Positions 9,836-62,991 of a stretch of DNA of 64,000 nt are shown one piece after another. A model generated the notes under the pieces. It made no database searches and was not told the origin of the DNA. It worked only from the letters and a program-made list of their open reading frames with translations. Source of the DNA: Balanoglossus misakiensis (taxonomy: Eukaryota > Animalia > Hemichordata); assembly GCA_040954595.2 (NCBI GenBank), contig CM082596.2, forward strand, positions 8,631,124 through 8,695,123. Direction: 5' to 3'. The translations under genes and the position numbers were made by a program. Numbering within the stretch: the first letter of the stretch is position 1; each line of letters begins with the position of its first letter.

Positions 9836-9865
9836 CAATATTTGGAAAACATCATCAACCAAGCA

Positions 9866-11302
9866 TTTTTAGGTCCCATTGGTATGTACCATGGGACCTT
9901 ATGGGATGGGTTGCGTCTGTATGTATGGATGCATGTATGTATGGATGGATGTATGTCTGTATGTCCGTCCACATCAAAAACTTGAAAACCGCAGCACGTA
10001 TGACCTCGATATTTGGTGTGTAGATGCAGGCAGGGCTGTAGATGGGAGTTTGTTCAAATGAAGGTGTCATTGCCAAAAATATGCAAATTAGCTGGGAAAA
10101 TGTGAAATTGGTCAAAACTCGACATCCACTGGTCATATTGATTTGAAAATTGGTATGCATGTACCTTATGTCAACCTCAAACAGTCCTGTATGTTTTGAG
10201 CTAATATTATCGATTTCCTATTTTTTATGCATTTTTTTTGTATTTTTCCATGTTATTGGTGAAAAGTCTTCATTTCTGAAAGTGATGGGCTTACTTCTTT
10301 GAAATTTAGTATGAAGCTTCCTTATAGTTGTCTGAGTAACCATAGTTTTGTTCAAATTGTTGCAAAATTTGCATATTATAATTTTGAGCAATATTTGCCA
10401 TTTTGGTCAAAACATTTTTTTCTTTAAAACCGCATGCCAGATTGCTTTGAAATTTGGTAGGCATGTTCGTAGGGGTAACCTAAGTAATATGTTGTAAAAA
10501 AATGTGATATTTTCATAAATGTGTTTTGCAATTTTTGTCAAAAAATGTTTTCTCTGAAACAGCTTGTCATATTGCATTGAACTTTGGCAGGCATGTTCCT
10601 TGTTGTGATTGAAGTAAGATATTGTACAATTTTGGTGATATTTTTCATATTTGTGTTTTTGCCACTTTTGAACAAATATTTTCTGTGAAAGTGCTTGTTG
10701 GATTGCTTTGAAATTTGTTTTTTTCTCTGATTGCTCTGAAATTTAGGATATAATTTCATAACACATACATGTATATGTGCAACTTTTATTCAATTCTGAC
10801 ATCAGAAATATTCAATATTTAGCAAGTTTTTTTGTAAGTTTCTTTGTTTTTGGTTAGCAAATCTTCTCCTAAACCATTTGTCCCGTTGTTTTTAAAGTTA
10901 CTATTTCCAAGGAGTTGTTACCCCGAACTAAGACATGTTTACATAACTTTAATAGGCCAGCTGTTACAGAGACCACAAGCTATTAAATTTTTAATTACCA
11001 GTGGCAGGTCAGTGTGTGTGTCTGTCTGTGTGTCTGTTCCAGGGCTGACTGAGAGAAGTTGCTTGTCATGTGTGTTTGTACAGACAATTGTTGGTCAATT
11101 TTTTTTTCTAGCACCACTTGTAAGACTGCCATGACACATGACTGTTTATTGGGCATGTTCTTTGATAATTTTTGTACATTCCAGATTTCTATATGGTTAG
11201 ATCATATCTGCTTGCAATGTCACCTGTAATTTTTATTCTGGTGTGTCACTGTTTCCGCACAATCCTCAAATGGGACCACAGTGTCCTTGACGCTATTTTT
11301 CT
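9866..11302 (-). mobile_element. HINE/DINE-1-like non-autonomous element, second family
   Basis: Reverse complement of 49553-50985 and 60197-61626. Terminal hairpin AGGTCCCATTGGTA..TACCATGGGACCT next to a (CATA/CAGA)n microsatellite. Confidence 0.75.
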
Positions 11303-13107: not shown

Positions 13108-14577
13108 GTGAGTAAAATTTTTCTTAAATTTGAATAATATATGACCTGCAATGTGCAAATTCTAATGTATCCTGAATTAAGAGTGTCTGTAAATATCAAT
13201 GTAATAATTTGCTACTTAATTCATGTATTTTAATTATTTCTTTATTCAACAAGAAACGAGATGAGTTCAGTGACCTGATGAAGGAATCAGGTATTTGGTG
13301 AAGGTGTAAACAGCAAACTTCTCATCGACCTTCTGGAGGATTTTGAGCTTCTCTGTCATGCACATGGCCTCACAAAGACTGGAGAGAAACTTTTCTTCAT
13401 ACCAGGACTTCAAGATGATGATATGCCTGAAGGCCATTGGGAGAAGAGCGAAGTGAAGACAATTGATTTTGGGAGACGATTCGAATGCCAATTAGATGAA
13501 ACAGATTCCTTTACGGCAGGCTTTTTCCCAAAATTACAGACCCGTCTATATAAGCGTTTCACCAACCTTGGCCAACCACCCAGTGGCTTATGGAGAAGTA
13601 TCACAGTGTGCCATGATGTTGAAGGTCTTGTCTTTATGACCAATGGCAGAAGGGCAGTCAATGTCTGCGTACGAGTTGAAGACAAGAAGTTGATTGGTGA
13701 GGGCCATGAGCTTCTTGAGATGGTTTCCAAAGACATACAGGATGTCTTCTCAATTGCCTGTCCAGGCAACAGGATGATCGAATCAGCTTATCCTGAGTGC
13801 AGACTCTCTTGCAAACCACGACATGGAACAAGTTTGGTTTTACACTCTTGATGACGTGCTACACGCAGAAGACATTGGAAAGAAAGTGTACAACAAAGAA
13901 GTCGGTGAACCAAAAGATATTTGTGACCTGCTTTGTCAAGGTCATGACACAACGATCTTACTGAAGAAGTGGAAACGCTGTGATATCAAATGGATGCTTG
14001 AAGATACCAGACACAAAGTGACCATGAGAATGGACATTGAGCGTGGAGACCCTTCTTTGCACTATGCCAGCATAGCCGAATGGATGGGCATAAAATACAC
14101 GGATGTGCGGACATTTGAAGAACAAGCTCGTCGCACTGGCCGACCAGTTACAGAGTACCTCTTCAAAGAGTGGTGTCGCAGATGGGCTGAGAGGAAACAA
14201 CATCAAAGTGGAAAATACACTGGCAGGTGCCAGAGCCATCTCACCTAACATAGATGCCACCAAAGGTCGTTCAGCAAAAATGTCACACTCATCAACATCA
14301 TCCCCACCAACAAGATTCTGATGAAGAAGTGAATGCTCAGAAAACAAGACAGAAGTATCCACATTTAAAGGGACCAGGCTCTTCGAAAGCAACTTTGAGA
14401 ATCTGTTGGCAATTTTCAAGACCATGGGAAGAGACGACATGGTAACGTTGATTGAAGAGATGTTCGAAGAAATTGTGAAAACACAAACGAAATGAACAGA
14501 TAACATGTGTAAATTCCACCCAGTATTAACCAAAACAGTGTGTGTTAAATTGTCATAAAAATGTCAGGTGCCTTTGA

Positions 14578-14583: not shown

Positions 14584-15655
14584 TGATCTGGAAACATTAT
14601 AACCATGTACCCCTATGTCAGTTCAGACCAGTGTAGACACCTAAATGGTGGTCCAGAATTGAAAAAGAAACTTTAGACCTCAAATCTTTCGTTTCGAAAT
14701 AGTAATATTATAGTCTAAAAATGCAAACAGTGTCATACAACAGTGAAAAGGTTGACACAGTGTATTTTTTGCCGTTTGTGAATCTGATGACCAGGAGGTG
14801 GTCTTTGAGCAATGTGTATTCAACCTACAAACTATAGTTAAAAGAGTGCATTTCTCATGTCTTAAATACAATGTACGGTAGATGTCGAATAAAAAGGTAA
14901 TCCGAGACTAGTATTTCTGCAATGGCATTTTCAAATACCACACGTACAGTATATAGAGTGATAAGTGTGTGTGATTCTCAATGTACATGTATCTATTAAT
15001 TGCCAATGCAGCCCAACAAAATATCTATAACCAATCATGAATGTACATTAGAGTTTGGTTCATTTTTGTTTGTGTGATAGATTTAAACTTCTGTCTCATG
15101 GAGAGACGCAAATAACCATTTTTGAAGTGTGTTTTATTGTAAGTTTTTTAATGCTCCGTAAAGTTTGTATCTTCTTTACATGTTATATAAAGAGGCCACT
15201 AATTCTTAATCCCTATGAGTATTTTAAAGCCTCAGTATTTCTCGTAGGGGCAAAATTTTGTTTGAAACGGCATCTATAATTTCTAAAAGTAGATGATAAT
15301 TGATTCTGAATCGAACAGTCATCATCCCCAGCTCTGCTCATAAACTCATACAATTTACAATATAACGAGTGAAGAATGACTTTCTGTCCTTACAGAAAGT
15401 CAGGCTCTGTTGACACACGTGACTACTGCGCATGCGCACTCAAATGTGAATCTATGCGGAAGAGGTTTGGTCGCCCCAAATCAAGTGACTCAGCGAAGAA
15501 ATGCGCACTAATTCGGCGAAATTTTGGGAAGATAACTTTATGGGAGAAATCAGTCGATGGAACCAGATCAAATCCGAAAATGGTCTGACCATCAAATGTC
15601 AAAGTGGCACGTTTGCTGATCGACATGTGCAACATGTCCGTTGTAAATTATTGAC

Positions 15656-16740
15656 AGATGTCTATCAAGTTTGCGAAGAGGAATGTGATTGGTCGAAGAT
15701 TATGGCGGCCATATTGGATTTTGTGAAAAACGATTAAAAAGTAAAAATTCCCTTTCTAGCCTAAAAATTGATAGCACAGAAATTCTTTTTACGGATATGA
15801 ATCATCATATGCCAAGAATAAGCTATAAATATTTTGGTAATTTTGGCAATGACCATTGACCTACTTTTGACGCATGATTTTTCTGCATATCTAATTCCAG
15901 GCTAACCAATAGGGCTATAAGTTTGGTTTTTGATGTATGTGGATTTGTATGTGATCCAAAAATTTTGCTACTTTTCATGACCCCTTTGACCTCTACTGAC
16001 CTCATTAAATATGCACATACCTAATTACAGATGAACCAATAGACCTAGAGGTTTTGTTTTTGTTATACATGGACCAGTATGGGGTCAAAATATTTTGCCC
16101 AAATGTTGGGTGACCTCGGGTGACCTTTGACCTACTTTTGCATATCTCGACATCCACAGCAGATACAGCCTTGGCGTTTGGAGGTATGGGGCCATAATGA
16201 AAAGCCAAAGTTTGGGGTCACCTGTGACACCTGCTTAACTCATTAATTATGTGCATACCTAATTCTAGGCTAACCAAAAGGGCTAGAGATCTGGTTTTTG
16301 TTGGACATGGACCACTATGGGTCAAAATTTTCTGCCCAAATTTTGGATGACCTCAGATGACCTTTGACTACTTTTGCATATCTCGGCATCCAAAGCAGGT
16401 ACAGCCTTGGCATTTGGAGGTATGGGGCCATAATGAAAAGCCAAAGTTTTGGGTCACCTGTGACACCTGCTTTACGCATCCAGGCTAACCAAAAGGGCTA
16501 GAGGTCTGGTTTTTGTTGGACATGGACCACTATGGGTCAAAATTTTCTGCCCAAATGTTGGGTGACCTCTGGGTGACCTTTGACCTACTTAACACTTTAA
16601 CAGCACGAAACATAGATATAACCTTGATATTTCATGGGATAAAACAGCATTATGTTTCTACTCATTAATTATGTGCATATCTAATAATCAGATCAGATAA
16701 TAGAGCTTGGGCCCGGACAATGCTGCTTGCAGCTTTAATT
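15656..16740 (-). mobile_element. Inverted, 3'-truncated HINE-like element closely related to the innermost nested copy (30752-32710)
   Basis: Reverse complement of TTAAAGCTGCAAGCAGCATTGTCCGGGCCCAAGC at ~16705-16740, with the same ~238-bp internal repeats. Confidence 0.85.
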
Positions 16741-17730: not shown

Positions 17731-18951
17731 ACAACTTATATGGGGGCGCTCTTTCTAATGCTACTGACAAACTTTTGTTATGAGGGCGCAATTCAGGTTT
17801 CGGCGTGCGAATTTCTTTTACATGCTTGACAAAATATATTTTCAGAACAGACTGAGAAAGCAAAATATTTTTTTCTTCGCGGCGGAAATGAAGCTATCCC
17901 ACAATTCCCGTACATGAGGACGTTACAGGAGTACATAAATCCAACAAACAGATGAGATGGCTATCTATCCACAGTGCAATATTTACAGATTGTATCTACT
18001 ACGGCCCGGGCAGACAAATCCGGACAATTTCGCCGACGTATCGTAGACCTTTGAATGACGCTGTCGATCAAATCGAATACAAGATCTAGGGGAGTCGGTC
18101 CGTGGGAGAAATCGGCCAGGTGCGAACTTGGCTCGTAGGATCGTTTAAATTAAAGTCCTTTAAATTATGTTTCGTGTATGCGTCACATTTTACGTGTACA
18201 GTAAACCACAGTGCTAGTGCTGCTCTGTCCCTGTCCCTTGGCAGTTTGTGGAGTGACCGTGGTACAGTCGCCGCCGTTTAATCAGGACACCATGGGCGCA
18301 GACAAAACATCCCCATTAACCGGCTGTTCCATTTAGGGTAAAATGGTCGATCCCACCCACACATGTTCACCTAGTCTTGCTCCAAGACTGTGTGATACTG
18401 AAAAAGAAATGCGCGTCCGCGTTGCGTCCTGTGGACGCGACGCTAATCTGGCGGCGCGTCGTACGAAAGTTCCATTCCTTATCGACAGGCACAGCGACTG
18501 CCATAGAGTCTAATGTTCACCTTACACGCTATTGTTTACTTGGACATCGACGGCAAACAATTTCCATATGATGATTGACTTTCGCGCTGATTATCGTACC
18601 CACGGCGGCCGACTGACCACGCTGAGTATATATAGCCGCTCTAGAAAACATGACCTCAGACAGATCCCTCGGGACCATGCCTCGAATTCAACGATCACGT
18701 AGATGGACGCGCTGCCGCGTATGAGGTCACCGGGGAGCTTTCCAAAGTGGTCACCCGAAATTGGAAGGGCCAGCCGGTTAATCGAAACATAATTTAAATT
18801 CCTTTCAACCAACAACAACTGGACACAGAGTGTAATGCCCACGGTTGCACGAGCACACGTGTGTACGAACAAATTAGACTTCCGGCTAAAGACGATTGGA
18901 GTCGGCTTCGGATTCAGCTTTGGTTTCGGGTTCGAGTGAACCACTGGTAAC

Positions 18952-19080
18952 CACAGGTAGCTGTGATATTTCTATGTCGGAGAATTATAGTGAGGTCATT
19001 AGTTATCCCGTGCTCGTTCTGCGGGATAACTAATGACCTCACTATAATTCTCTGACATAGAAATATCACGGCTACCTGTG
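18952..19080. mobile_element. 129-bp hairpin MITE with 8-bp TSD (hAT or P-like)
   Basis: 59-bp arms with 2 mismatches, CACAGG...CCTGTG termini, TSD CTGGTAAC at 18944-18951 and 19081-19088. Confidence 0.9.
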
Positions 19081-19144
19081 CTGGTAACTGTGGTAACTGA
19101 TGGAAAACTACAGCGTAATTGTGAAGAGCGTCACCAAAGGTTAA

Positions 19145-22100
19145 AATATAGCTGCAAGCAGCGATGACGGGCACAAGCTTAAGCCGAAGGTCAAAGGTCA
19201 TATGTGGTCACCCAAAATTTGGGCAAAAAGTTTTGACCCCCATACTAGTCCAGGTCCAACAGAAACCTGACCTCTAGCCCTATTGGTTTGTCTGAAATTA
19301 GATATGCACATAATTAATGATGTAAAGTGTAAGACTCCATTAATAGTTCGATCCATCCAAACACAAATGCTGTACCTGTTCTGGATGCCAAGATATAGCA
19401 AAGTAGGTCAAAGGTCACCTAAGGTCACCCAAAATTTGGGCAAAATTTTTGACCCCATACTGATCCATGTCCCACAAGAACAAAACCTCTAGCCCTATTG
19501 GTTAGCCTGGAATTAGGTATGCGCATAATTAATGAGATATGCAGGTGTCACTGGTGACCCCAAATTTTGGCTTTTCAATTTTAGTCCCAACCCTCCAAAC
19601 GCCAAGTCTTTGCCTGCTCTGGTTGCCAAGATATGGTAAATTAGGTCAAAGGTCACCTGAGGTCATGCAAAATTTGGGCAAGAAATTTTGAGCCTATACT
19701 GGTCGATGTTCAACAAAAATCAAACCTCTAACCCTATTGGTTAGCCTGTAATTAGGTATGCACATAATTAATGAGATAAGCAGGTGTCACAGGTGACCCC
19801 CAAATTTGGCTTTTCAATTATAGTCCCAACCCTCCAAACGCCAAGTTTGTACCTGCTATTGATGCGGAGATATAGGAAAGTAGGTCAAAGGTCACCTGAG
19901 GTCACCCAGAATTTGGGCAAATTTTTTTAACCCCATACTGGTCCAAGACCAAAAAGAACGAAACCTCTAGCCCTATTAGTTAGCCCGGAATTAGGTATGC
20001 ACATAATTAATGAGTTTAGCAGGTGTTACAGGTGAGCCCGAAATTTTGCCTTTTAATGTGGTCCCATTCTGCTCATGGGCCAGTAGGCAGTCTCTGTACA
20101 GGACCATTGCACAGACGTGTACATGGCGTCATAGCTTAACTATAGAAAGTATAGGCCCGTGGCTGGGTCCAAAAATATGAAAAACTACTAATATTTACAA
20201 GTCTTCTTCTCAAAATAGACTTGGCCCACGGCCTTGATATTTGGCATGTAGGACACTGATCACATGGTCCACAAAAGTTGCTAAAAGAATTTCGATATCT
20301 CCATTCATATGCAAATTAGGCCCATTTGAAAACTTTGCCCATATATGGTCATCAAGCCACATGACTATATAAACATTCACAGGGATACTGCACCAGCTCT
20401 CATAGGCCTGCACCATTGTGCCAAGTTTGAGATTTGTAGGTTCAGCCGTTTTCAAGATCTACCTGAGCAAAAAAACTACACAAGAAAAAAAAAAAGATGA
20501 ATATAGCTGCAAGCAGCGATGACGGGCCCAAGCTTAAGCCAAAGGTCAAAGGTCATAAGCGGTCACCCGAAATTTGGGCAAGAAATTTTGACCCCATACT
20601 GGTCCGTGTCTCACAAGAACAAAATCTCTAGCCCTATTGGTTCGCCTACAATTAGGTATGCGCATAATTAATGAGATAAAGTGTAAGGCTCCATCAGGAG
20701 TTCCATCCCTCCAAATGCCAAGGCTGTATCTGCTGTGGATGCCGAGATATGGTAAAGTAGGTCAAAGGTCACCTGAGGTCACCCAAATTTTGGGCAAAAA
20801 ATGTTGACCCCATACTGGTCCATGTTCAGCATAAATCAAACCTCTAGCCCTATTGGTTAGCCTGGAATTAGGTATGCACATAATTAATGAGATAAGCAGG
20901 TGTCACAGGTGACCCCAATTTTGGCTTTTCAATTTTAGTCCCAACCCTCCAAACGCCAAGTCTGTACCTGCTCTGGTTGCGGAGATATAGGAAAGTAGGT
21001 CAAAGGTCACCTGAGGTCACCCAACATTTGGGCAATGTTTTTTAACCCCATACTGCTCCATGTCCCACAAGCACGAAACCTCTAACCCTACTGGTTAGCC
21101 TGGAATTAGGTATGCACATAATTAATGAGATATGCAGGTGTCACAGGTGACCCCTATTTTGGCTTTTCAACTTTAGTCCCAACCCTCCAAACGCCAAGTC
21201 TGTACCTGCTGTGGATGCCGAGATATAGGTAAGTAGGTCAAAGGTCACCTGAGGTCACCCAAAATTTGGGCAGAAAATTTTGACCCATAGTGGTCCATGT
21301 CCAACAAAAACCAGACCTCTAGCCCTTTTGGTTAGCCCAGAATTAGGTATGCACATAATTAATGAGTTAAGCAGGTGTTACAGGTGAGCCTAAAATTGTG
21401 CCTTTTATTTTGGTGCCATTGTGCTCACTGACCAATAGACAGTCACTGTACAGGACTATTGCACAGACCAGAATTCCACAATAAGACATAGACATAGCTT
21501 AACCATAGAGGTATAATTAAAGGTATAAATTTAATAAAAAAATTAATATAAAAAAATCGGTCGATTTTTCATATTATTTTTTTTGCTTAAAATTATTGAC
21601 AAATGCAAGGCTAGCTGCACACCAAAGTTGGAGATGATCGGCCTAACAGATTTTGAGATATGTATGCATATTTATCCAAAATACGATGTGGTCATAGCTT
21701 TACTATGTAAAGTATAGGCCGATGGCTTGGGCGAAAAAATATGAAAAATAATACTTAAAAATCTTCTTCTCAAAATTGACATGGCCTATGGCCTTGACAT
21801 TGGGCATGTAGAACCCTGGCCATATGGCCCACAAAGTATCTTAACAGAATTTTGATATCTCCATTCATATGCAAATTAGGCCGATTTGAAAACTTTGCCC
21901 ATATATGGTCATCAGGTCACGTGACTTATTAAACATTCACAAGGGTACTGCACTAGCTCTCATTGGCCTGCACCATTGTGCCAACTTTGAAATTGGTAGG
22001 TTTAGCCGTTTTCCAGATCTAGCTGGCCGAAAAAACTACACAAGAAAAAAAAGAAGTAGAAGAAATATAGCTGCAAGCAGCAATAGCGGGCCCAAGCCAA

Positions 22101-23454
22101 CATAGCACATAGCAACATAGCAATAAGCATATCTGCACTTGATACCAAGATATGGTAAAGTAGGTCAAAGGTCAACTGAGGTCATGTTATATTTAGGCAA
22201 GACATTTTTACCCTATACTGGTCCACGTTCAACAAAAACCAAACCTATAGCACTATTGGTTAGCCTGGAATTAGGTATGCACATAATTAATGAGGGAGGC
22301 AGGTGTCACAGGTGACCCCCAATTTTGGCTGTTCAATTTTAGTCCAACCCTCCAAACCCCAAGACTGTACCTGCTCTGGATGTCAAGATCTGGTAAAGTA
22401 GGTCAAAGGTCACCTGAGGTCATGCAAAATTTGGGCAAGAAATTTTGACCCTATACTGGTCCATGTTAAGCAAAAACTAAACCTATAGCCCTATTGGTTA
22501 GCCTGGAATTAGGTATGCACATAATTAATAAGGTAGGCAGGTGTCACAGGTGACCCCCAATTTTGGCTTTTCAATTTTAGTCCCAACCCTCCAAACACCA
22601 AGTCTGTACTTGCTCCGGATGCCAAGATCTGGTAAAGTAGGTCAAAGGTCACCTGAGGTCATGCAAAATTTTGGCAAGAAATGTTGACCCTATACTGGTC
22701 CATATCCAACAAGAACGAAACCTCTAGCCCTCTTAGTTAGCCCAGAATTAGGTATGCACATAATTAATGAGTTAAGCAGGTGTTACAGGTGAGCCCAAAA
22801 TTTTGCCTGTTATTTTGGTCCCATTGTGCTCACTGCCCAATACACAGTCACTGTACAGGACCGTTGCACAGACCAGAATTCCACACCAAGACGTGTAGTG
22901 TTCATAGCTTAACTATAGAGGTATAAGTAAAAAGGTATAAATTTAATTTAAAAAATTAATATAAAAAAATCGGTCGATTTTTCATATTATTTTTTTCGCT
23001 TAAAATGATTGACAAATGCTAGGCTAGCTGCACACCAAAGTTTGAGATGATCAGCCTAACAGATTTTGAGATATGTATGCATATTTATCCAAAATAATAT
23101 GTGGTCATAGCTTTACTATGTAAAGTATAGGCCGATGGCTTGGGCGAAAAATATGAAAAATAATACTTAAAAATCTTCTCCTCAAAATTGACATGGCCTA
23201 TGGCCTTGACATTTGGCATGTAGAACCCTGGCCATATGGTCCATAAAGTATCTGAACAGAATTTTGATATCTCAATTCATATGCAAATTAGGGCGATTTG
23301 AAAATTTTGCCCATATATGGTCATCAGGTCACGTGACTAATTAAACATTCACGAGGGTACTGCACCAGCTCTCATTGGCCTGCACCATTGTGCTAAGTTT
23401 GAAATTGGTAGGTTCAGCCGTTCTCCAGATCTAGCTGGACAAAAAAACGACAAG

Positions 23455-23486
<32 letters not shown>

Positions 23487-26400
23487 GAAGAAAAATCCCA
23501 GTAATACCAATAGGGCCCAAGCCTGCTGGGCTTGGGCCCTAAATATAGCTGCAAGCAGCGATGACGGGCCCAAGCTGAAGCCGAAGGTCAAAGGTCATAT
23601 GTGGTCACCCAAAATTTGGGCAAAACGTTTTGATCCCAATACTAGTCCAGGTCCAACAGAAACCAGACCTCTAGTCCTATTGGCTTGTCTGAAATTAGAT
23701 ATGCGCATAATTAATGATGTAAAGTGTAAGACTCCATTAATAGTTCAATCCATCCAAACACAAATGCTGTACCTGTTCTGGATGCCGAGATATAGGAAAG
23801 TAGGTCAAAGGTCACCTGAGGCCACCCGAAAGTTGGGCAAAAAATTTTGACCCCATACTAGTCCAGGTCCAAGAAAAAACAGACCTGTAACCCTATTGGT
23901 TCGCCTGGAATTAGATATGCACATAATTAATGACGTAAAGTATATGGCTCCATTAGAAGTTCCATGCCTCCAAATGCCAAGGCTGTATCTGCGTTGGTTG
24001 TCGAGATATGGTAAAGTAGGTCAAAGGTCACCTGAGGTCACCCAAAATTGGGCAAGAAATTTAACCCCATACTGGTCCATGTTCAATAAAAATCAAACCT
24101 CTAGCCCTATTGGCTAGCCTGGAATTAGGTATGCACATAATTAATGAGATAAGCAGGTGTCACAGGTGACCCCCAATTTTGTCTTTTCAATTTTAGTCAC
24201 AACCCTCCAAACGCCAAGTCTGTACCTGCTGTGGATGCCGAGATATAGGAAAGTAGGTCAAAGGTCACCTGAGGTCACCCAAAATTTGGGCAAAAATTTT
24301 TGATCCCATACTGGTCCATGTCTCACAAGAACAAAATCTCTAGCTGTATTAGTTAGCCTGGAATTAGGTATGCACATAATTAATGAGTTAAGCAGGTGTT
24401 ACAGGTGAGCCTAAAATGTTGCCTTTTATTTTGGTGCCATTGTGCTCACTTACCAATAGACAGTCACTATACAGGACTATTGCACAGACCACAATTCCAC
24501 AATAAGACATGGACATAGCTTAACTATAGAGGTATAAGTAAAGGTATAAATTTAATAGAAAAATTAATATAAAAAAATCGGTCGATTTTTCATATTATTT
24601 TTTTCCGCTTAAAATTATTGACAATTGCTAGGCTAGCTGCACACCAAAGTTGGACTTGATCGGCCAAACAGATTTTGAGATATGTATGCATATATATCCA
24701 TAATATGTGGTCATAGCTTTACTATGAAAAGTATAGGCCCATGGCTTGGGCGAAAAATATGGAAAATAATACTTAAAAATCTTCTTCTCAAAATTGAGCT
24801 GGCCTATGGCCTCGACATTTGGCATGTAGAACCCTGGCCATATGGTCCGTAAAACTTTGATATGTCCATTCATATGCAAATTAGGCTGATTAAAAATTTT
24901 TGCCCATATATGGTCATCAGGTCACATGACTAATTAAACATTCACAAGGGTACAGCTCTAGCTCTCATTGGCCTGCACCATTGTGCTAAGTTTGAAATTG
25001 GTAGGTTCAGCCATTTTCCAGATCTAGCTCGCCAAAAAAACGACACAAGAAGAAAAAAAAATATAGCTGCAAGCAGCAATAGCGGGCCCAAGCCAACATA
25101 GCACATAGCAACATAGCAATAAGCATATCTGCTCTTGATATGGAAAAATATGTCAAAGGTCACCTGAGGTCATGCAAAAATTTGGGCAAGAAATTTTGAC
25201 TCTATACTGGTCCATGTTCAACAAAAACCAAACCTATAGCCCTATTGGTTAGCCTGGAATTAGGTATGCACATAATTAATGAGATATGCGGGTGTCACAG
25301 GTGACCCCCATTTTGGCTTTTCAATTTTAGTCCCAACCCTCCAAACACCAAGTCTGTACCTGCTCTGGATGCAGAGATATGGTAAAGTAGGTCAAAGGTC
25401 ACCTGAGGTCATACAAAATTTGGGCAAGAAATTTTGACCCTATACTGGTCCATGTTCAACAAAAAGCAAACCTATAGCCCTATTGGTTAGCCAGGAATTA
25501 GGTATGCACATAATTAATGAGATATGCAGGTGTCACAGGTGACCCCCATTTTGGCTTTTCAGTTTTAGTCCCAACCCTCCAAACGCCAAGTCTGTACCTG
25601 CTCTGGATGCCGAGATATAGGAAAGTAGGTCAAAGGTCACCTGAGGTCACCCAAAATGTGGGCAAAAATTTTTGACCCTATACTGGGCCATGTCCCACAA
25701 GAACGAAACCTCTAGCCCTCTTAGTTAGCCCAGAATTAGGTATGCACATAATTAATGAGTTAAGCAGGTGTTACAGGTGAGCCTAAAATTTTGCCTTTTA
25801 TTTTGGTGCCATTATGCTCACTGACCAATAGACAGTCACTGTACAGGACTATTGCACAGACCAGAATTCCACAATAAGACGTGGACATAGCTTAACCATA
25901 GAGGTATAAGTAAAGGTATAAATTTAATAAAAAAATTAATATAAAAAAATCGGTTGATTTTTCATATTATTTTTTTTCTCTTAAAATGATTGACAAATGC
26001 TAGGCTAGCTGCACACCAAAGTTGGAGATGATCGGCCGAACAGATTTTGAGATATGTATGCATATTTATCGAAAATAATATGTGGTCATAGCTTTACTAT
26101 GTAAAGTATAGGCCCATGGCTTGGGCGAAAAATATGAAAAATAATACTTAAAAATCTTCTTCTCAAAATTGACATGGCCTATGGCCTTGACATTTGGCAT
26201 GTAGGACACTGACCACATGGTCCGCGAAAATCGCTAAAAGAATTTAGATATCTCCATTAATATGCAAATTAGGCCCTTTTGAAAACTTTGCCCATATATG
26301 GTCATCAGGTCACGTGACTAATTAAACATTCACAAGGGTACTGCACTAGCTCTCATTGGCCTGCACCATTGTGCCAAGTTTGAAATCTGTAGGTTTAGCC

Positions 26401-29400
26401 GTTTTCCAGATCTAGCTGGCCGAAAAAACTACACAAGAAAAAAAAAAAGAAGAAGAAGTAGAAGATTAAAGCTGCGAGCAGCATTGTCGGGCCCAAGCGC
26501 TGATCTTGAATTATATATGCACAGTATGAATTAGAAGAAACAGAATTTTCTATCGGATGTATTATCTCATGACATAACAAGGATGTGGGTATTTTTGCTG
26601 CTGAAATAGGGTGAAGTAGGTCAAAGGTCACCTGAGGTCACCCAACATTTGGGCAATTTTTTTTTACCCATACTGGTCCATGTCCAACAAAAACCAAAAC
26701 TCTAGCTCTATTGGTTCACCTGTAATTAGGTATGTGCATATTTAATGAGGTCAGCAGGTGTCACAGGTGACCCAAAAATTTGGCTTTACATTTTGGTCCC
26801 ATCCTACCAAATGCAATGGCTGTATCTGCTCTGGATGCTGAGATATGAGAAAGTAGGTCAAAGGTCACCAGAGGTCACCCAACATTTGGGCAAAAAAATT
26901 TGATCCCATACTGGTCCATGTCCAACAAAAACAAAACCTCTAGCTCTATTGGTTCGCCTGTAATTAGCTATGTACATAATTAATGAGGTCAGCTGAGGTC
27001 AAAGGGGTCATGAAAAGTAGCAAAATATTTTGATCACACACTAATTCACATTCATCAAAAACCAAACGTCTAGCCCTATAGGTTAGCCTGGAATTAGATA
27101 TGCAGAAATAATAACGCGTGATAAGTAGGTCAAAGGTCATGTGAAAAATCGCAAAAAAATTGTAACATATTTTAGTCACATGACGATTGATATCCATAAA
27201 AACAATTTGTATGCTATCAAATTTTAGACTAGAAAAAGGAATTTCAAATTTTCACTGCTTTTTACAAAATCCAATATGGCCGCCATAATCTTCGACCAAT
27301 CACAATGCTCTTTGCAAACTTGATAGACATCAGTGTAGTGACCATACTCCCCGAATCTTGCAACTCAGTCATCGCCCGTTCTGGAGAAGAAGATTTTTGG
27401 AGTTTAACTATGGTTTTTCGTAAATCCAATATGGCCGCCATAATCTTCGACCAATCACAATGATCTTCGCAAACTTGATAGACATCAGTTAGGTGACCAC
27501 ATACCCCAAACCCCGTGTCTCGGTTATCACCGGTTCTGGAGAAGAAGATTTTTGAAATTTTGACCAGATTTCAGAAAAACAACTGTAGCAAAAAAACTGC
27601 AACATTGACAGCAAAATATCCAATTACAAAAATGATGGGCAGAAGGTACACTACCTGCACACCAAATCTGAAGTCGATCTGACTTGTAGTTTCTGAGATC
27701 TGAGATTTGCATTTTTTCAGAAAATCCAATATGGCCACCAGGTCACGTGACTAATTACGTATTCACAAGTCACTGCACATCTACTCATTGACCTTGACCA
27801 CTGTAGCAAGTTTGAGCAGTGTACCTGCAGTAGTTTCTGAGATTTAGTTGGCCGAAGAATTGACACAAGAAAAAAGAAAGAAAGAAAGATTAAAGCTGCG
27901 AGCAGCATTGTCGGGCCCAAGCGCTGATCTTGAATTATATATGCACAGTATGAATTAGAAGAAACAGAATTTTCTATCGGATGTATTATCTCATGACATA
28001 ACAAGGATGTGGGTATTTTTGCTGCTGAAATAGGGTGAAGTAGGTCAAAGGTCACCTGAGGTCACCCAACATTTGGGCAATTTTTTTTTACCCATACTGG
28101 TCCATGTCCAACAAAAACCAAAACTCTAGCTCTATTGGTTCACCTGTAATTAGGTATGTGCATATTTAATGAGGTCAGCAGGTGTCACAGGTGACCCAAA
28201 AATTTGGCTTTACATTTTGGTCCCATCCTACCAAATGCAATGGCTGTATCTGCTCTGGATGCTGAGATATGAGAAAGTAGGTCAAAGGTCACCAGAGGTC
28301 ACCCAACATTTGGGCAAAAAAATTTGATCCCATACTGGTCCATGTCCAACAAAAACAAAACCTCTAGCTCTATTGGTTCGCCTGTAATTAGCTATGTACA
28401 TAATTAATGAGGTCAGCTGAGGTCAAAGGGGTCATGAAAAGTAGCAAAATATTTTGATCACACACTAATTCACATTCATCAAAAACCAAACGTCTAGCCC
28501 TATAGGTTAGCCTGGAATTAGATATGCAGAAATAATAACGCATGATAAGTAGGTCAAAGGTCATGTGAAAAATCACAAAAAAATTGTAACATATTTTAGT
28601 CACATGACGATTGATATCCATAAAAACAATTTGTATGCTATCAAATTTTAGACTAGAAAAAGGAATTTCAAATTTTCACTGCTTTTTACAAAATCCAATA
28701 TGGCCGCCATAATCTTCGACCAATCACAATGCTCTTTGCAAACTTGATAGACATCAGTGTAGTGACCATACTCCCCGAATCTTGCAACTCAGTCATCGCC
28801 CGTTCTGGAGAAGAAGATTTTTGGAGTTTAACTATGGTTTTTCGTAAATCCAATATGGCCGCCATAATCTTCGACCAATCACAATGATCTTCGCAAACTT
28901 GATAGACATCAGTTAGGTGACCACATACCCCAAACCTCGTGTCTCGGTTATCACCGGTTCTGGAGAAGAAGATTTTTGAAATTTTGACCAGATTTCAGAA
29001 AAACAACTGTAGCAAAAAAACTGCAACATTGACAGCAAAATATCCAATTACAAAAATGATGGGCAGAAGGTACACTACCTGCACACCAAATCTGAAGTCG
29101 ATCTGACTTGTAGTTTCTGAGATCTGAGATTTGCATTTTTTCAGAAAATCCAATATGGCCGCCAGGTCACGTGACTAATTACGTATTCACAAGTCACTGC
29201 ACATCTACTCATTGACCTTGACCACTGTAGCAAGTTTGAGCAGTGTACCTGCAGTAGTTTCTGAGATTTAGTTGGCCGAAGAATTGACACAAGAAAAAAG
29301 AAAGAAAGAAAGATTAAAGCTGCAAGCAGCATTGTCGGGCCCAAGCGCTGATCCGGTATTATATATGCACAGTATGAATGAGAAGAAACAGAATGCTCTA

Positions 29401-30721
29401 TCAGGTGTTTTATCTCATGACATAACAAGGACGTATGTATTTTTCCTGCTGAAATAGAGTAAAGTAGGTCAAAGGTCACCTGAGGTCACCCAACATTTGG
29501 GCAAAATTTATTGACCAATACTGTACCATGTCCAACAAAAACCAAAACTCTAGCTCTATTGGTTCGCCTGTAATTAGGTATGTGCATATTTAATGAGGTC
29601 AGCAGATGTTACAGGTGACCCAAAAATGTGGCTTTACATTTTGGTCCCATCCTACCAAATGCCATGGCTGTATCTGCTCTGGATGCTGAGATATGCGAAA
29701 GTAGGTCAAAGGTCACCAGAGGTCACCCAACATTTGGGCAAAAAATTTTGATCCCATACTGGTCCATGTCCAACAAAAACCAAACCTCTAGCTCTATTGG
29801 TTCGCCTGTAATTAGCTATGCACATAATTAATGAGGTCAGCTGAGGTCAAAGGGGTCATGAAAAGTAGCAAAATATTTTGATCACACACTAATCCAAATT
29901 CATCAAAAACCAAACGTCTAGCCCTATAGGTTAGCCTGGAATTAGATATGCAGAAATAATAATGCGTGATAAGTAGGTCAAAGGTCATGTGAAAAATCGC
30001 CAAAAAATTGTATAATATTTTAGTCACATGACGATTGATATCCATAAAAAGAATTTGTATGCTATCAATTTTTAGACTAGAAAAAGGAATTTCAATTTTT
30101 CACTGCTTTTTACAAAATCCAATATGGCCGCCATAATCTTCGACCAATCACAATGTTCTTTGCAAACTTGATAGACATCAGTGTAGTGACCATACTCCCC
30201 GAATCTTGCAACTCAGTCATCTCCCGTTCTGGAGAAGAAGATTTTTGGAGTTTAACTATGGTTTTTCGAAAATCCAATATGGCCGCCATAATCTTCGACC
30301 AATCACAATGATCTTCGCAAACTTGATAGACATCAGTTAGGTGACCACATACCCCAAACCCCGTGTCTCGGTTATCACCGGTTCTGGAGAAGAAGATTTT
30401 TGAAATTTAAGCCAGATTTCAGAAAAAAAATTGTAGCAAAAAAACTGCAACATTGACAGCAAAATTTCCAATTACAAAAATGATGGGTAGAAGGTAGTCT
30501 ACCTGCATGCCAAATTTGAAGTCGATCTGACTTGTAGTTTCTGAGATCTGAGATTTGCATTTTTTCAAAAAATCCAATATGGCCGCCAGGTCACGTGACT
30601 AATTAAGTATTCACAAGTCACTGCACATCTACTCATTGACCTTGACCATTGTAGCAAGTTTGAGAAGTGTACCTGCAGTAGTTTCAGAGATCTCGTTGGC
30701 CGAAGAATTGACACAAGAATA

Positions 30722-30754
<33 letters not shown>

Positions 30755-33108
30755 TAAAGCTGCAAGCAGCATTGTCCGGGCCCAAGCTCTATTATCTGAT
30801 CTGATTATTAGATATGCACATAATTAATGAGTAGAAACATAATGCTGTGTTTTATCCCATGAAATATCAAGGTTATATCTTTGTTTGGTGTTGATATAGT
30901 GTAAAGTAGGTCAAAGGTCACCCAGAGGTCACCCACAATTTGGGCAGAAAATTTTGACCCATAGTGGTCCATGTCCAACAAAAACCAGACCTCTAGCCCT
31001 TTTGGTTAGCCCGGAATTACGTATGCACATAAATAATGAGTAAAGCAGGTGTCCCAGGTGACCCAAAACTTTTGCTTTTCATTATGGCCCCATACCTCCA
31101 AACGCCAAGGCTGTATCTGCTGTGGATGTCGAGATATGCAAAAGTAGGTCAAAGGTCATCTGAGGTCACCCAAAATTTGGGCAAAAATTTTGACCCATAG
31201 TGGTCCATGTCCAACAAAAACCAGACCTCTAGCCCTTTTGGTTAGCCCGGAATTAGTTATGCACATAAATAATGCGTAAAGCAGGTGTCACAGGTGACCC
31301 AAAACTTTGGCTTTTCATTATGGCCCCATACCTCCAAATGCCAAGGCTGTACCTACTTTGGATGCCGATATATGCAAAAGTAGGTCAAAGGTCACCCGAG
31401 GTCACCCAACATTTGGGCAGAAAATTTTGACCCATAGTGGTCCATGTCCAACAAAAACCAGACCTCTAGCCATTTTGGTTAGCCCGGAATTAGGTATGCA
31501 CATAAATAATGAGTAAAGCAGGTGTCACAGGTGACCCAAAACTTTGGCTTTTCATTATGGCCCCATACCTCCAAACGCCAAGGCTGTATCTTGTGTGGAT
31601 GTCGAGATATGCAAAAGTAGGTCAAAGGTCACCCGAGGTCACCCAACATTTGGGCAAAATATTTTGACCCCATACTGGTCCATGTATAACAAAAACAAAA
31701 CCTCTAGGTCTATTGGTTCATCTGTAATTAGGTATATGCATATTTAATGAGGTCACCAGAGGTCAAAGGGGTCATGAAAAGTAGCAAAATTTTTTGATCA
31801 CATACAAATCCACATACATCAAAAACCAAACTTATAGCCCTATTGGTTAGCCTGGAATTAGATATGCAGAAAAATGATGCGTCAAAAGTAGGTCAAAGGT
31901 CATTGCCAAAATTACCAAAATATTTATAGGTTATTCTTGTCATATGATGATTCATATCCATAAAAAGAATTTCTGTGCTATCAATTTTTAGGCTAGAAAA
32001 GGAATTTTTACTTTTTAATCGTTTTTCACAAAATCCAATATGGCCGCCATAATCTTCGACCAATCACATTCCCCTTCGCAAACTTGATAGACATCTGTTT
32101 AATGACCACACACACCAAATCTTGTGACTCGGTTATCGCCCGTTCTGGAGGAGAAGATTTTTGAAGTTTTACTATGGTTTTTCGAAAATCCAATATGGCC
32201 GCCATAATCTTCGACCAATCACAATGATCTTCGCAAACTTGATAGACATCAGTTAGGTGACCACATACCCCAAACGGCGTGACTCGGTTATCGCCGGTTC
32301 TGGAGAAGAAGATTTTTGAAATTTTGACCAGATTTCAGAAAAACAACTGTAGCAAAAAAACTGCAACATTGACAGCAAAATATCCAATTACAAAAATGAT
32401 GGGCAGAGGGTATACTACCAGCACGCCAAATCTGAACTCGATCTGACTTGTAGTTTCTGAGATCTGAGATTTGCATTTTTTCAGAAAATCCAATATGGCC
32501 GCCATGTCACGTGACTAATTAAGTATTCACAAGTCACTGCACATCTACTCATTGACCTTGACCACTGTAGCAAGTTTGAGAACTGTACCTGCAGCGGTGT
32601 CTGAGATCTAGAGCGCGAAAGAAGTGAACCAAGAATAAAGAAAGAAAGAAAGAAAGAAAAACCCCAACGAAACCAATACGGGCCCAAGCCTGGCTTGGCT
32701 TGGGCCCGTAAAAAATTCCAACGAAACCAATAGGGCCCAAGCGCTTGCTTGCGCTTGGGCCCTAAAAAACCCCAACGAAACCAATAGGGCCCAAGCGCAA
32801 GCAAGCGCTTGGGCCCTAAAAAACCCCAACGAAACCAATAGGGCCCAAGCGCAAGCAAGCGCTTGGGCCCTAAAAAACCAGGATAATAACAATAGGGCCC
32901 AAGCGCTGCATGCGCTTGGGCCCTAAAAAAAAAAAAAAAAAGTAGAAGAAAAACCAGGATAATACCAATAGGGCCCAAGCGCTGGTATGCGCTTGGGCCC
33001 TAAAAACCAGGATAATACCAATAGGGCCCAAGCGCTGCATGCGCTTGGGCCCTAAAAAACCCCAGTAATACCAATAGGGCACAAGCCTGCTTGGCTTGTG
33101 CCCTAAAA
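19145..33108 (+). mobile_element. Nested stack of nine Helentron-associated (HINE/DINE-1-like) non-autonomous elements
   Basis: 5' ends (TATAGCTGCAAGCAGC or TTAAAGCTGC..GGGCCCAAGC) at ~19145, 20500, 22063, 23542, 25060, 26464, 27889, 29312 and 30752. Each has ~238-bp internal tandem repeats and an AAG/AAAG microsatellite. 3' GGGCCCAAGC..GCTTGGGCCC hairpins: one at 23494-23541 and eight at 32660-33108. No TSDs and no coding capacity. Confidence 0.85.
32660..33108 (+). repeat. Eight consecutive ~54-bp terminal hairpin modules (stacked element 3' ends)
   Basis: CCAATAGGGCCCAAGC-loop-GCTTGGGCCCTAAAAA x8 with variable loops. Confidence 0.92.
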
Positions 33109-33409
33109 ATAGCCTTCCAAAACATAATGAAAGACCACGGAATTCTATTTTGTGGTAACGTTATCAAAAAGTGACTGACCCCCATTAAAATGGAAATGTG
33201 GGTATTGCTGGAGCGCCCTCTGTTATGTAGATTAAGTTTGCTATTGTTTTCGTGACCATGTGTGTTTATCGTTTACTTTAGTAATTTGAATATTTGCGTG
33301 ACCAGGTGTGATGCATTCATTACTTTTCTTGTATAAAAGCGTGCACGTTGCCACGTCTCTGCTGATTTGGACTGGCCCTTGTGAGCTGTGTTCCGTTCCT
33401 CACCGACTT

Positions 33410-33800
33410 GGAAGCTTTGCTGTGTCTCATGTTGTACTGGTCTGGAAGCCGCGCCTAGAAGCCGTGCTGTCTCATGTTGTACTGGTCTGGAAGCCGCGCC
33501 TAGAAGCCGTGCTGTCTCATGTGGAACTGGTCTGGAAGCCGCGCCTAGAAGCCGTGCTGTCTCATGTGGAACTGGTCTGGAAGCCGTGCTGTCTCATGTG
33601 GAACTGGTCTGGAAGCCGCGCCTAGAAGCCGTGCTGTCTCATGTTGTACTGGTCTGGAAGTCGCGCCTAGAAGCCGTGCTGTCTCATGTGGAACTGGTCT
33701 GGAAGCCGCGCCTGGAAGCCGTGCTGTCTCATGTGGAACTGGCCTGGAAGCCGCGCCTAGAAGCCGTGCTGTCTCATGTGGAACTGGTGTGGAAGTCGTG
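33410..33800. repeat. 45-bp minisatellite (GAAGCCGTGCTGTCTCATGTGGAACTGGTCTGGAAGCCGCGCCTA), ~9 copies
   Basis: Direct reading. A two-copy version occurs in the adjacent duplicate at ~34180-34270. Confidence 0.92.
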
Positions 33801-34345
33801 CAGTCTACCGGTGGATTTTGCCAGAGCGCTACTCGGACTGAACGTCGCCGTCGGAACTGTCGCGGTGTTGTCGCGTTCGTCGTAAGCTACGGAACTTTGG
33901 ACTTTAGTCTTACATTTCCACACCTGGTCACATTTAAGGTAGTCACTTATTTTTGTGGGTTTTTTTTTCAGTGTAAAATCATTTCCAAAAGTAAGGAAAT
34001 AACGTGTGGTGTGACTATATCATGTATATTGTTGACCGTCTTTCGTAATTTGAATATTTGCGTGACCAGGTTTGATGCATTGATTACTTTTCTCCTATAA
34101 AAGCGTGCACGTTGCCACGTTGTGCCGTCGCTGCTAATTTGGACTGGTCCGTGTGAGCTGTGTTCCGTTCCTCGCCGGCTTGGAAGCTGTGCCGTATCTC
34201 ATGTGGAACTGGTCTGCGTCTGGAAGCGCCGCGTCTAGAAGCCGTGCTGTCTCATGTGGAACTGGTCTGGACGCCATGCAGTCTACCGGTGGATTTTGCC
34301 AGAGCGCTACTCGGACTGAAGTCGACGTCGGAACCTGTCGCGGTG

Positions 34346-37367: not shown

Positions 37368-38869
37368 TCATGGTCTTTCATTTGAATGGATCCTCATGTG
37401 CCTCTTCTGATGGCCACTCTGTCTAAATGTTTTCCCACATTCTTTACATGCAAATGGTCTTTCATTTGAATGGATCCTCATGTGTTTCTTTAGACCTTCT
37501 CTCCATGTAAATGTTTCCCCACATTCATTGCATTCAAATGGTCTTTCATTTGAATGGATCCTCATGTGGCTCTTCTGATGGCCACTCCGTCTAAATGTTT
37601 TCCCACATTCTTTACATGCAAATGGTCTTTCATTTGAATGGATCCTCATGTGTTCCTTTAGACTGTCTCTCCGTGTAAATGTTTTTCCACATTCATTGCA
37701 TGCAAATAGTCTTTCATTTGAATGGATCCTCATGTGTTCCTTTAGACCGTCTCTCCGTGTAAATGTTTTTCCACATTCATTGCATGCAAATGGTCTTTCA
37801 TTTGAATGGATCCTCATGTGTTTCTTCTGATCGCCACTCCATTTAAATGTTTTCCCACATTCTTTACATGCAAATGGTCTTTCATTTGAATGGGTCTTCA
37901 TGTGTTCCTTTAGACTGTCTCTCCGTGTAAATGTTTTTCCACATTCATTGCATGCAAATGGTCTTTCATTTAAATGGATCCTCATGTGTTCCTTTAGACT
38001 GTCTCTCCGTGTAAATGTTTTTCCACATTCATTGCATGCAAATGGTCTTTCATTTGAATGGGTCTTCATGTGTTCCTTTAGACTGTCTCTCCGTGTAAAT
38101 GTTTTTCCACATTCATTGCATGCAAATGGTCTTTCATTTGAATGGATCCTCATGTGTTCCTTTAGACTGTTTCTCTGTGTAAATGTTTTTCCACATTCAT
38201 TGCATGCAAATGGTCTTTCATTTGAATGGATCCTCATGTGTTCCTTTAGACTGTTTCTCTGTGTAAATGTTTTTCCACATTCATTGCATGCAAATGGTCT
38301 TTCATTTGAATGGGTCTTCATGTGTTCCTTTAGACTGTCTCTCCGTGTAAATGTTTTCTCACATTCTTTACATGCAAATGGTCTATCATTTGAATGGATC
38401 CTCATGTGTTCCTTTAGACTGTCTCTCCGTGTAAATGTTTTTCCACATTCATTGCATGCAAATGGTCTTTCATTTAAATGGATCCTCATGTGTGTCTTCT
38501 CATCGCCACTCCATCTAAATGTTTTTCCACATTCTTTACATGCAAATGGTCTTTCATTTGAATGGATCCTCATGTGTTTCTTCTCATCGCCACTCCATTT
38601 AAATGTTTTCCCACATTCTTTACATGCAAATGGTCTTTCATTTGAATGGGTCTTCATGTGTTTCTTTAGACTCCCTCTCCGTCTAAATGTTTTCCCACAC
38701 TCTTCAAGTACTAACCATCTTCGGCCCTGTCCACTGTTGCAATCGTGATGCAACATGTCTGATCCACCAAGTTCTTGACCATGTTCAACATGTTGACTGC
38801 TGACATCATCCAGTAGGCTCACTTGAATATGGCCAGAGTGTGCCAGAGTCTGGATTATCAGTGATACAT
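37368..38869 (-). CDS. C2H2 zinc-finger array exon, copy A (15 complete + 1 partial finger)
   Basis: 84-bp repeats encoding FACxECGKTF-x6[12 protein letters not shown]. Phase-1 acceptor (TTTTGTTATCATCCAACAG on the minus strand) at 38870, with the frame open to TGA at 37368. Confidence 0.88.
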
Positions 38870-39082
38870 CTGTTGGATGATAACAAAACAGCTACTTAAA
38901 TACAGGCTTCAAGCACACTTAATAAGTAACATTACTACTGATTACCAATCACATCGTCTCAGGGTGTCAGGAGACAGATTCCCTCTTCTGAACCCTCCCC
39001 CCCCCCCACACACACACCCTTTAACGTTGCCGGCTAATGGCTGATGCCCATCTTGAGATAGGTTATACTGAAGATAACTTAA

Positions 39083-39701
39083 AGGGGAAATCCGCTGTAG
39101 CTGATTTCTACATAATTTGGTAGCTTTGATGTCTCTCTTTCAGAAAAAAACATATTCGCCATGTATAGGTCGCGCGATTTTTTACAAAATCTAGGGAAAA
39201 TTGGCAGAATTTCCAATATGGCGTTTACTGTAATTTGAATCATGGGAAAAAAAGCGCCAGGACCAACTTCCGCCCACCTTGGTGTGGGTGATACCATTTT
39301 CCGATTGGTGTCACTGTGTCACAAGCTAAGCGTATTTGCATATTTTTCATGGGTTATAGCTCATGAAAACTGTCAATAGATGACAAATTTTCGACTTTGC
39401 TGATGATTGTTTATCAACTGATGCAAAGAACAAACAATAGCTATGAAAATACGCCTAGTCTGTCGCCCAGTGACACCAATCGGAGAATGGTATCACCCAC
39501 ACCATGGTGGGCGGAAGTTGCTCCTGGCGCTTTTTTTCCCATGATTCAAATTACAGTAAACGCCATATTGGAAATTCTGCCAACTTTCCCTAGATTTTGT
39601 AAAAAATCGCGCGACCTATACATGGCGAATATGTTTTTTTCTGAAAGAGAGACATCAAAGCTACCAAATTATGTAGAAATCAGCTACAGCGGATTTCCCC
39701 T
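39083..39701. mobile_element. Kolobok-type MITE with long TIRs, TTAA TSD
   Basis: TTAA|AGGGGAAATCCGC...GCGGATTTCCCCT|TTAA with TIRs over 230 bp. Empty site at ~56008 in copy B. Confidence 0.9.
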
Positions 39702-39925
39702 TTAAGCAATCATGTATGAGCAGACTGATTATTTGTTGATGTACTGAACTATTGGCAAAGAATGATCACAACAATGGTGTGATTGACTTCAAGGGAACAC
39801 CCCCTTTCAATTTGTATACATCATCTTTCTCCAAAGGGAAAGCTTTGTTCATGCTGTCTTTTGTTTCAAGAGACAAGAAACAGCAGGACTAGTAATATGT
39901 AACAAAAGAGATTATGCTTGCTTAC

Positions 39926-50985: not shown

Positions 50986-51252
50986 AAATCAATAGCTGTT
51001 ACCTCGATTTTGTAATCATTAATATAAGTATCAATTGAATACCTCTACATACACACATATCTGACAAATCCACAATTTGGTCCAATTTCTCTCTTTAAAA
51101 AAAGTATTTTATTCGAGAATTCAGACAGAAAATAAAATATTTCCATATCTTATGACATGCATTGATCAACACATCTTGAAACATGAATATCCCTCCACGG
51201 CCATCAAAAATATATTTCAAATTCTCTCCATAAATATGCATTATAGGCTTAA

Positions 51253-62855: not shown

Positions 62856-62975
<120 letters not shown>

Positions 62976-62991
62976 CTAACTGCCACTCCAT

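Follow-up and report, generated by a model that had tools for sequence, protein, structure and literature searches.

We describe a block of about 14 kb (positions 19146–33105) within a 64,000-nucleotide stretch of DNA, hereafter the window, from the hemichordate Balanoglossus misakiensis (assembly GCA_040954595.2, contig CM082596.2, positions 8,631,124 to 8,695,123). The block contains nine start motifs and nine hairpins that close in last-in-first-out order, and we are confident that it consists of nine related non-coding elements nested one inside another. A first-pass annotation, made from the sequence alone, had parsed the block in this way, and the parse is borne out by a test of the possible pairings and by termini that co-vary. 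The elements, numbered E1 to E9 in the order of their starts, all share one orientation. The stack is eight levels deep, the outermost element included, and comprises seven nested insertions and one sibling (E3, beside E4). The hairpins had been described as terminal; because the definition of Helitron2, the transposon group that these elements resemble, places them on the minus strand (PMC3627910), each hairpin is a 5′ end.

Pairing of starts and hairpins

The starts lie at 19146, 20501, 22065, 23543, 25061, 26466, 27890, 29314 and 30754, and the hairpins at 23513, 32680, 32733, 32787, 32841, 32895, 32971, 33024 and 33077. Copies of the start motif range over 19146–30787, and eight of the nine hairpins are clustered at 32680–33103. 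The window contains 10 matches to the start pattern, nine of them in the stack and one in a truncated solo copy (16705–16734), and the strict hairpin pattern catches eight of the nine hairpins, the exception at 32895 having a variant leader; neither pattern occurred in any of 100 shuffles.

Distances between bodies were correlated with distances between hairpin units under all 362,880 possible pairings. The nested pairing ranked 20 for the last 150 body bases, 96 for the last 300 and 204 for whole bodies, and 320, 1192 and 4714 for the first 33 bases, the first 45 bases and the tails, respectively. The same-order pairing scored below the nested pairing in all six segments. Particular variants are also confined to the two ends assigned to one element. 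Ten letters are common to the E1 start and hairpin 33077, as against 5–6 for each other hairpin, and the variant inverted repeat of E1 is found in these two ends alone; an extra C at the inverted repeat is exclusive to the E9 start and hairpin 32680. The four inner-type starts match the four inner-type hairpins, which are placed first. E6 and E7 show 4 differences over 1424 positions, and their hairpins (32787 and 32841) are identical. E4 ends in an A9 run, and an A17-GTAGAAG piece comes after hairpin 32895. Thus, the four internal checks offered with the original parse (the E1 variant, the inner types, the E6/E7 twins and the split E4 tract) hold. In addition, of the outer bodies, E2 and E5 are the most alike near the hairpin (2.7% apart), and the hairpins assigned to them are likewise the most similar outer pair (1.9%).

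The number of A residues at the junctions is equally regular. An intact site holds five A's, and a filled site holds eight with an outer-type guest or seven with an inner-type guest; these totals are equal in length after the start cores are counted (E4's long run is not countable). The number of A's that a guest contributes to an empty five-A site is therefore constant.

The nested elements, all on the minus strand, can be followed from the outside inward. The outermost, E1, occupies 19146–20500 with its 3′ end (stem-loop and 3′ inverted repeat, the latter carrying the GGGCACAAGC variant), its 238-bp central repeats and its body up to the cut tract; its 5′ end (33056–33105) consists of a 13-bp hairpin with the E1 variant in both arms, a linker and a T run. 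Its guest E2 has its body and 3′ end at 20501–22064 and its 5′ end, with a 14-bp hairpin, at 33004–33054. Two siblings lie within E2. E3 (22065–23541) is intact, with a hairpin of its own (23511–23541) and a target site that stayed unused. E4 (body and 3′ end, 23543–25060) is interrupted within its own long T run, and its 5′ end (32927–33002) carries the hairpin and the tract piece missing from the body. E5 (body and 3′ end, 25061–26465; 5′ end with the leader variant AATAAC, 32874–32925) is a mosaic with an E3-like 3′ terminus and an E2-like 5′ half. E6 (body and 3′ end, 26466–27889; 5′ end, 32820–32872) belongs to a second subfamily group. E7 (body and 3′ end, 27890–29313) is 99.7% identical to E6 and has an identical 5′ end (32766–32818), and E8 (body and 3′ end, 29314–30753; 5′ end, 32712–32764) is 95% identical to both. 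The innermost element, E9 (30754–32710), is intact, with its hairpin at 32677–32710 and a free target site near 32655–32661. E9 is ∼89–90% identical to E6 and E7, and E1–E5 are mutually 87–93% identical.

Outside the stack, a solo copy of the E9 type (15654–16738, plus strand; 94% identity to E9) lies in opposite orientation in an AT-rich flank. It retains its 3′ end and lacks the 5′ part and hairpin, and thereby resembles the 5′-truncated Helitron2 copies described in Chlamydomonas (PMC3627910).

All 124 stem base pairs across the nine hairpins are perfect, which bounds the mean change since insertion near 1.2%, unless the stems are repaired or selected. For the outer five elements, zero mismatches in 136 stem bases would have a probability of 0.017–0.004 at 3–4% decay each and of 0.13 at 1.5%. 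These observations suggest that all nine elements are young. The annotation had also read the stack as a record of subfamily succession, from old outside to young inside. This claim is not supported: besides the uniformly perfect stems, private changes number three in E7, the inner twin, and only one in E6 (three of the four being CpG transitions), and E3 is known only to postdate E2. CpG density (11–15 per kb in outer and 18–19 in inner elements) is unsuited to dating, as the bodies differ in sequence, and in contigs from other loci the two hairpin groups may occur in reverse order. The stack thus records the order of insertion and not a long-term succession; several subfamilies active within one short period fit better.

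Anatomy and class of the elements

On the minus strand, every element begins with a T run, a perfect 13–14 bp hairpin containing an inverted repeat, a 17-nt linker, a T5 run and a (CTT)n or (CTTT)n tract, followed by a body with 238-bp repeats, a 3′ inverted repeat, a small stem-loop and a T-rich end. The 5′ inverted repeat lies 0–2 nt from the 5′ end, in the perfect stem directly after the T run, in all nine elements. The 3′ inverted repeat lies 23 nt from the end with 10–12 shared letters, also in all nine (the HLE2 criterion being 20–30 nt and 8–15 bp), although four elements share only 10 letters, one under the 11-bp family rule given in PMC4067079. Every element has a 3′ stem-loop of the GCTGC-TT-GCAGC type, which folds as a 4-bp stem (whole end, −2.7 to −5.0 kcal/mol) and is shorter than the 7–11 nt stems reported for DINE-1. 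All nine are flanked by a T run on the 5′ side and a T on the 3′ side. The longest repeat in the flanks consists of A's alone, and no target-site duplication is present beyond them, a 1–3 base T duplication being indistinguishable from the terminal T's. The elements also carry (AAG)n/(AAAG)n tails and central tandem repeats of 216–239 and 155 bp, as called by Tandem Repeats Finder (TRF), and the outer elements terminate in TATATTT. Two frames in the stack are free of stops (120 and 172 codons), both over the hairpin repeats, and no Helitron domain was found in the 10 open reading frames (ORFs) of the window that were scanned, of 38 listed.

This anatomy agrees with the Helentron/HINE-type assignment, and with insertion into TT without duplication, as initially proposed. 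Judged from their sequence, the elements are likely non-autonomous, rolling-circle transposons of the Helitron2/Helentron type (HINE). The label Helentron, in the strict sense, implies a partner with an apurinic endonuclease domain, and the elements may belong to another HLE2 group instead. Three other classes were considered and rejected. A MITE (a miniature transposable element with inverted repeats) of the terminal-inverted-repeat (TIR) type is incompatible with repeats placed asymmetrically (0–2 nt versus 23 nt from the ends) and with the lack of any duplication beyond A's. A short interspersed element with an A-rich tail is disfavoured by the absence of Rfam matches in 18500–34000 and by the internal position of the tract in intact E3 and E9. 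Satellite DNA does not account for the bracket-like order or for units that are 0.3–39% apart.

Landing site and growth of the stack

Six of the seven nested insertions lie 53–57 nt inside the host 5′ end, in the T5 run that opens the (CTT)n/(CTTT)n tract, at 23–25 nt from the host hairpin arm and with no target duplication. The seventh, E5, entered a longer T run 22 nt further in, 79 nt inside the host end and 47 nt from the arm. Host bodies hold 7–21 further A or T runs of at least five, and under a null model in which any such run is a target, the tract site would be hit seven times by chance with a log10 P of −5.3 to −9.3. Once filled, a host site retains its hairpin, linker and T run but loses its tract; no more than one of the eight insertions went into such a site. 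The targets of E1 and the solo copy are T-rich and have no family hairpin alongside. We favour the tract over the hairpin because used hairpin sites are rarely reused, E5 lies 79 nt in, and E1 and the solo copy did without a hairpin. On balance, the preferred landing site is probably the T run that opens the pyrimidine tract, carried inside the 5′ end of each copy. The annotation had placed a self-target in the A-run before a 3′ hairpin; one preferred site within the element stands, but its place is a T run inside the 5′ end, on the minus strand. The adaptive safe-harbour strategy that the annotation read into this self-insertion would be a conjecture; solo copies also stand in unrelated sequence.

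A RepHel transposase encoded elsewhere would then insert at TTTT^T/C, with the T run opening the pyrimidine tract as its best substrate, perhaps aided by the adjoining hairpin. Insertion would separate the host T run from its tract while the guest supplies a fresh site, such that the stack would grow from the inside. The published insertion point of Helitron2 lies between TTTT and T/C (PMC3627910), and DINE-1 inserts after the second base of WTTTT (PMC2374699). In a toy growth model, a share f of new copies enters the single free site of a random stack. A stack of eight arose in 0–5% of runs at f ≤0.2 with 1,000–5,000 copies, in 40% at f 0.2 with 20,000 copies, and in 15–100% at f 0.3. According to this model, a stack of eight would need ∼20–30% nested insertions, implying either that nesting is common in the genome or that this locus is a hot spot.

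Contigs of three sets (X1, X2 and X3) were compared with two stretches of the window, 32300–33420 and 21975–22135. Among the contigs listed, tails join hairpins as predicted by the nested parse for E2, E5 and E8, the three elements that this comparison covered (E3 and E9 are intact in the window), in agreement with the body–hairpin pairing of the annotation. An E2-type tail is followed by the E2-predicted leader in at least two X1 contigs. A tail with E5's extra AAGAAG runs into the AATAAC leader, which occurs in E5's predicted hairpin only, in at least one X3 contig. An (AAAG)n tail stands ahead of E8's predicted hairpin in at least six X1 contigs. Hairpin-after-hairpin joins absent from the window occur in at least one X3, at least six plus four X1 and at least two X2 contigs, and tail-like sequence precedes a start in at least three X1 contigs; therefore, other stacks exist. 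Starts preceded by hundreds of unrelated bases (X1 record 4 and X2 record 13) indicate that the family is also dispersed as solo insertions. The X3 joint 32533–33002 and X3 record 17, of equal depth, are probably the same contig and were counted once, and summed contig depth, no measure of copy number, was not treated as such. X1 record 1 (66 letters, depth 1355.6), which runs from tail into start, was not accepted as bridging, as it has just 14 start-side letters. The GCTGGTATGC hairpin followed by the CCAACGAAAC leader (at least four X1 and two X2 contigs) was rejected as proof of the reverse order, given that the loop and the leader in question are joined in one X2 contig.

In other collections, the start motif has 2 matches in metagenome contigs and none in prokaryote genomes or viral contigs, and the hairpin motif has none in prokaryote genomes. 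Two contigs of another organism, L001 and L002, share with the window solely the 36-base terminus. In L001 (1–105), it opens a 105-bp element consisting of a single long palindrome, which immediately follows the AAT-rich tail of a longer, repeated body. In L002 (2504–2940), it stands head to tail after a related palindromic element. As both contigs end at the motif and belong to another organism, they were rejected as a test of nesting.

Several points weigh against a nested stack built at a preferred tract site. Over the first 45 bases, another pairing fits better than the nested one (r of 0.86 versus 0.56), because E3 and E5 have the start in common and differ in hairpin type; E5 and E1 must therefore be mosaics. 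In sliding windows, E1 and E4 differ by 5% in the first 270 columns and by 6–24% beyond, and E2 and E5 differ by 1–13% over the second half. The run-only null is conditioned on a locus chosen for its nested look. Hairpin and tract are confounded at six of the seven sites, where their roles are not separable. E3's intact site was bypassed while the E4 line took five insertions, an outcome with a chance of 1 in 32 had both sites been open throughout. The three contig sets derive from one sample, possibly the window's own source, and bear on the two compared stretches, where 18 of the 161 loose ends and 15 of the 43, respectively, were listed.

The same nested stack could have arisen if the transposase binds the hairpin/inverted repeat of a resident copy and inserts at the first T run ∼24 nt away, a possibility that we take seriously but consider unlikely. 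It would account for the arm distance of 23–25 nt in six of seven insertions, across two subfamily groups, and for starts immediately after a hairpin in at least five X1 contigs. If E3 preceded E4, then E4 sits in the T run directly against the E3 hairpin. The duplicated 5′ pieces of Fusarium Helitron2 (31–85 nt) are also of similar scale (PMC5148889). However, with up to seven used hairpin-plus-T-run sites on offer, at most one was reused, E5 lies 47 nt from the arm, and the fixed place of the T run explains the constant distance equally well. Growth that relied in part on recombination, or on nested blocks that transposed already assembled, instead of nine single insertions, is rather improbable; for example, E6–E9 could have been built elsewhere, or E7 could be a duplicate of E6 accompanied by a separate hairpin duplication. 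The near identity of E6 and E7 (99.7%, with identical tails and hairpins), the clean blocks formed by the two subfamily groups, the mosaic outer elements and the bypassed E3 site would all suit such growth, and composite Helitrons with multiple termini do transpose in Fusarium (PMC5148889) and maize (PMC12477314). Nevertheless, the counts hold at 9:9, whereas unequal exchange in bodies alone would break parity, and surplus hairpins would be left if read-out began at an outer 5′ end and stopped at the first 3′ end. Furthermore, the other seven elements differ by 5–39% and are not copies made locally from one another, and site-specific self-insertion would still be required to assemble the blocks.

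Two further readings fare worse. An assembly artefact, affecting the entire stack or the E6/E7 pair, is very improbable: none of the contigs listed spans either compared stretch (32300–33420 or 21975–22135) and family depth in the runs is very high, but E6 and E7 each carry private changes, three of four being CpG transitions, and rare variants matched 14 kb apart are not expected from an assembler. Least probable of all are two independent tandem arrays, one of 1.4–1.9 kb bodies and one of 54-bp hairpin units, whose numbers are equal by chance. TRF does call the hairpins as 53–54 bp tandem arrays, yet the mirror-image order of types (rank 20 of 362,880) strongly disfavours this explanation, as do the rare variants shared between the ends of E1 and of E9, the split E4 tract and the constant A bookkeeping.

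Relation to known elements and the rest of the window

The stacked elements resemble Helitron2/HLE2 in the 5′ inverted repeat within a 5′ hairpin, the 3′ repeat 20–30 nt from the end, the small 3′ hairpin, compensatory changes and insertion at TTTT / T,C without duplication (PMC3627910, PMC11417382). They differ from those accounts in the fixed self-target and the deep stack, and no RepHel gene is seen among the scanned ORFs; the word "nested" is absent from the available text of PMC3627910. With HINE, DINE-1 and oyster Cg_HINE elements they have in common a subterminal inverted repeat (subTIR) and an inverted repeat with a microsatellite behind, central tandem repeats, a 3′ stem-loop, no ORF, T-rich targets and a variable terminal T count (PMC4067079, PMC2374699, PMC7492417), but the microsatellite of the present family is a pyrimidine tract rich in T and would serve the family as its own target. 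"Nested" occurs 0 times in the available text of the DINE-1 and Cg_HINE papers (PMC2374699 and PMC7492417), and the end motifs of the family were not found in those supplements of Thomas et al. (PMC4067079) that are available as text.

Self-insertion of Helitrons has been published. FoHeli1/2 of Fusarium oxysporum have hairpins at both ends and a 3′ terminus of ATATTTT, compared to TATATTT here, and some copies have their first 31–85 nt repeated, which the authors ascribe to self-insertion (PMC5148889). The accessible account of FoHeli1/2 has one nested example and chiefly doubled 5′ ends, whereas the present stack preserves the whole intermediate, at eight levels and with matched ends. Maize Helitrons insert near one another and nest (PMC3288121, PMC12477314), and rice MITEs self-insert (PMC5172404); both land in or near their own kind, and nesting yields several termini. 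They belong to other classes (HLE1 and TIR MITEs), and the available texts describe neither a single regenerated site nor a last-in-first-out stack. The Helitron arrays of Paramecium and Hydractinia are, in the material available, located at chromosome ends and not self-nested. Searches by titles and abstract openings, a scope outside which lie most subscription journals and the Repbase reports, returned no fixed-site, multi-level HINE stack, and among the papers listed for six end motifs of the family, none is titled on such elements. A fixed-site stack of such depth was thus not found in the literature searched.

We tentatively propose, as a conjecture we would not yet favour, an animal HLE2 lineage in which self-insertion is a main targeting rule, the element's own 5′ end (hairpin, T run and tract) being read by the transposase as an attachment site that each insertion regenerates, and at least a fifth of copies being stacked. 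If so, ordered stacks would supply the intermediate that is missing for swapped termini and for Helitrons with more than one 5′ end; for Fusarium Helitrons with multiple 5′ termini such an intermediate has been proposed, and the present stack preserves it. Ordered stacks would also offer a natural readout of HLE2 target choice, which the HLE2/Helentron sources at hand describe just as a T-rich preference. The regenerated internal site would be a defined assay substrate, able to separate sequence preference from end recognition. Such blocks are prone to mis-annotation as satellites or truncated repeats.

Elsewhere in the window, two adjacent open frames at 13282–14248 (plus strand; 189 and 156 codons) have a protein-like composition and no Pfam match at E 0.001. 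A reverse-transcriptase ORF of 637 codons (RVT_1) lies at 3431–6237 (plus strand), with 389–1544 (minus strand) and 3136–4857. The next ORF gives a weak integrase SAM-like match, and together they likely represent a tyrosine-recombinase retrotransposon, flanked by two arrays of 245-bp ankyrin-exon repeats (1730–3013 and 7264–8957). A Ty3/Gypsy-type long terminal repeat retrotransposon (42792–48300) has gag, protease and RT-RNaseH-integrase frames between 235-bp direct repeats (42792–43026 and 48071–48300) that are 97.9% identical. On the minus strand, 84-bp C2H2 zinc-finger units form three related arrays (37370–38699, 54885–55631 and 62902–63998), which share flanks and therefore represent a locally duplicated zinc-finger gene family. 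A 2.6-kb segment is present twice (48621–51252 and 59273–61891, 97% identity), and 1.4 kb of it recurs inverted at 9865–11302 (91%). A 129-bp palindrome (18952–19080; 59-nt arms, 97% complementary) lies to the left of the stack at a distance of 65 bases; a second, larger palindrome (89%) is at 39078–39706. To the right of the stack, at 33423–33798, a 45/32-bp minisatellite lies within a unit that is repeated at 34040–34275.

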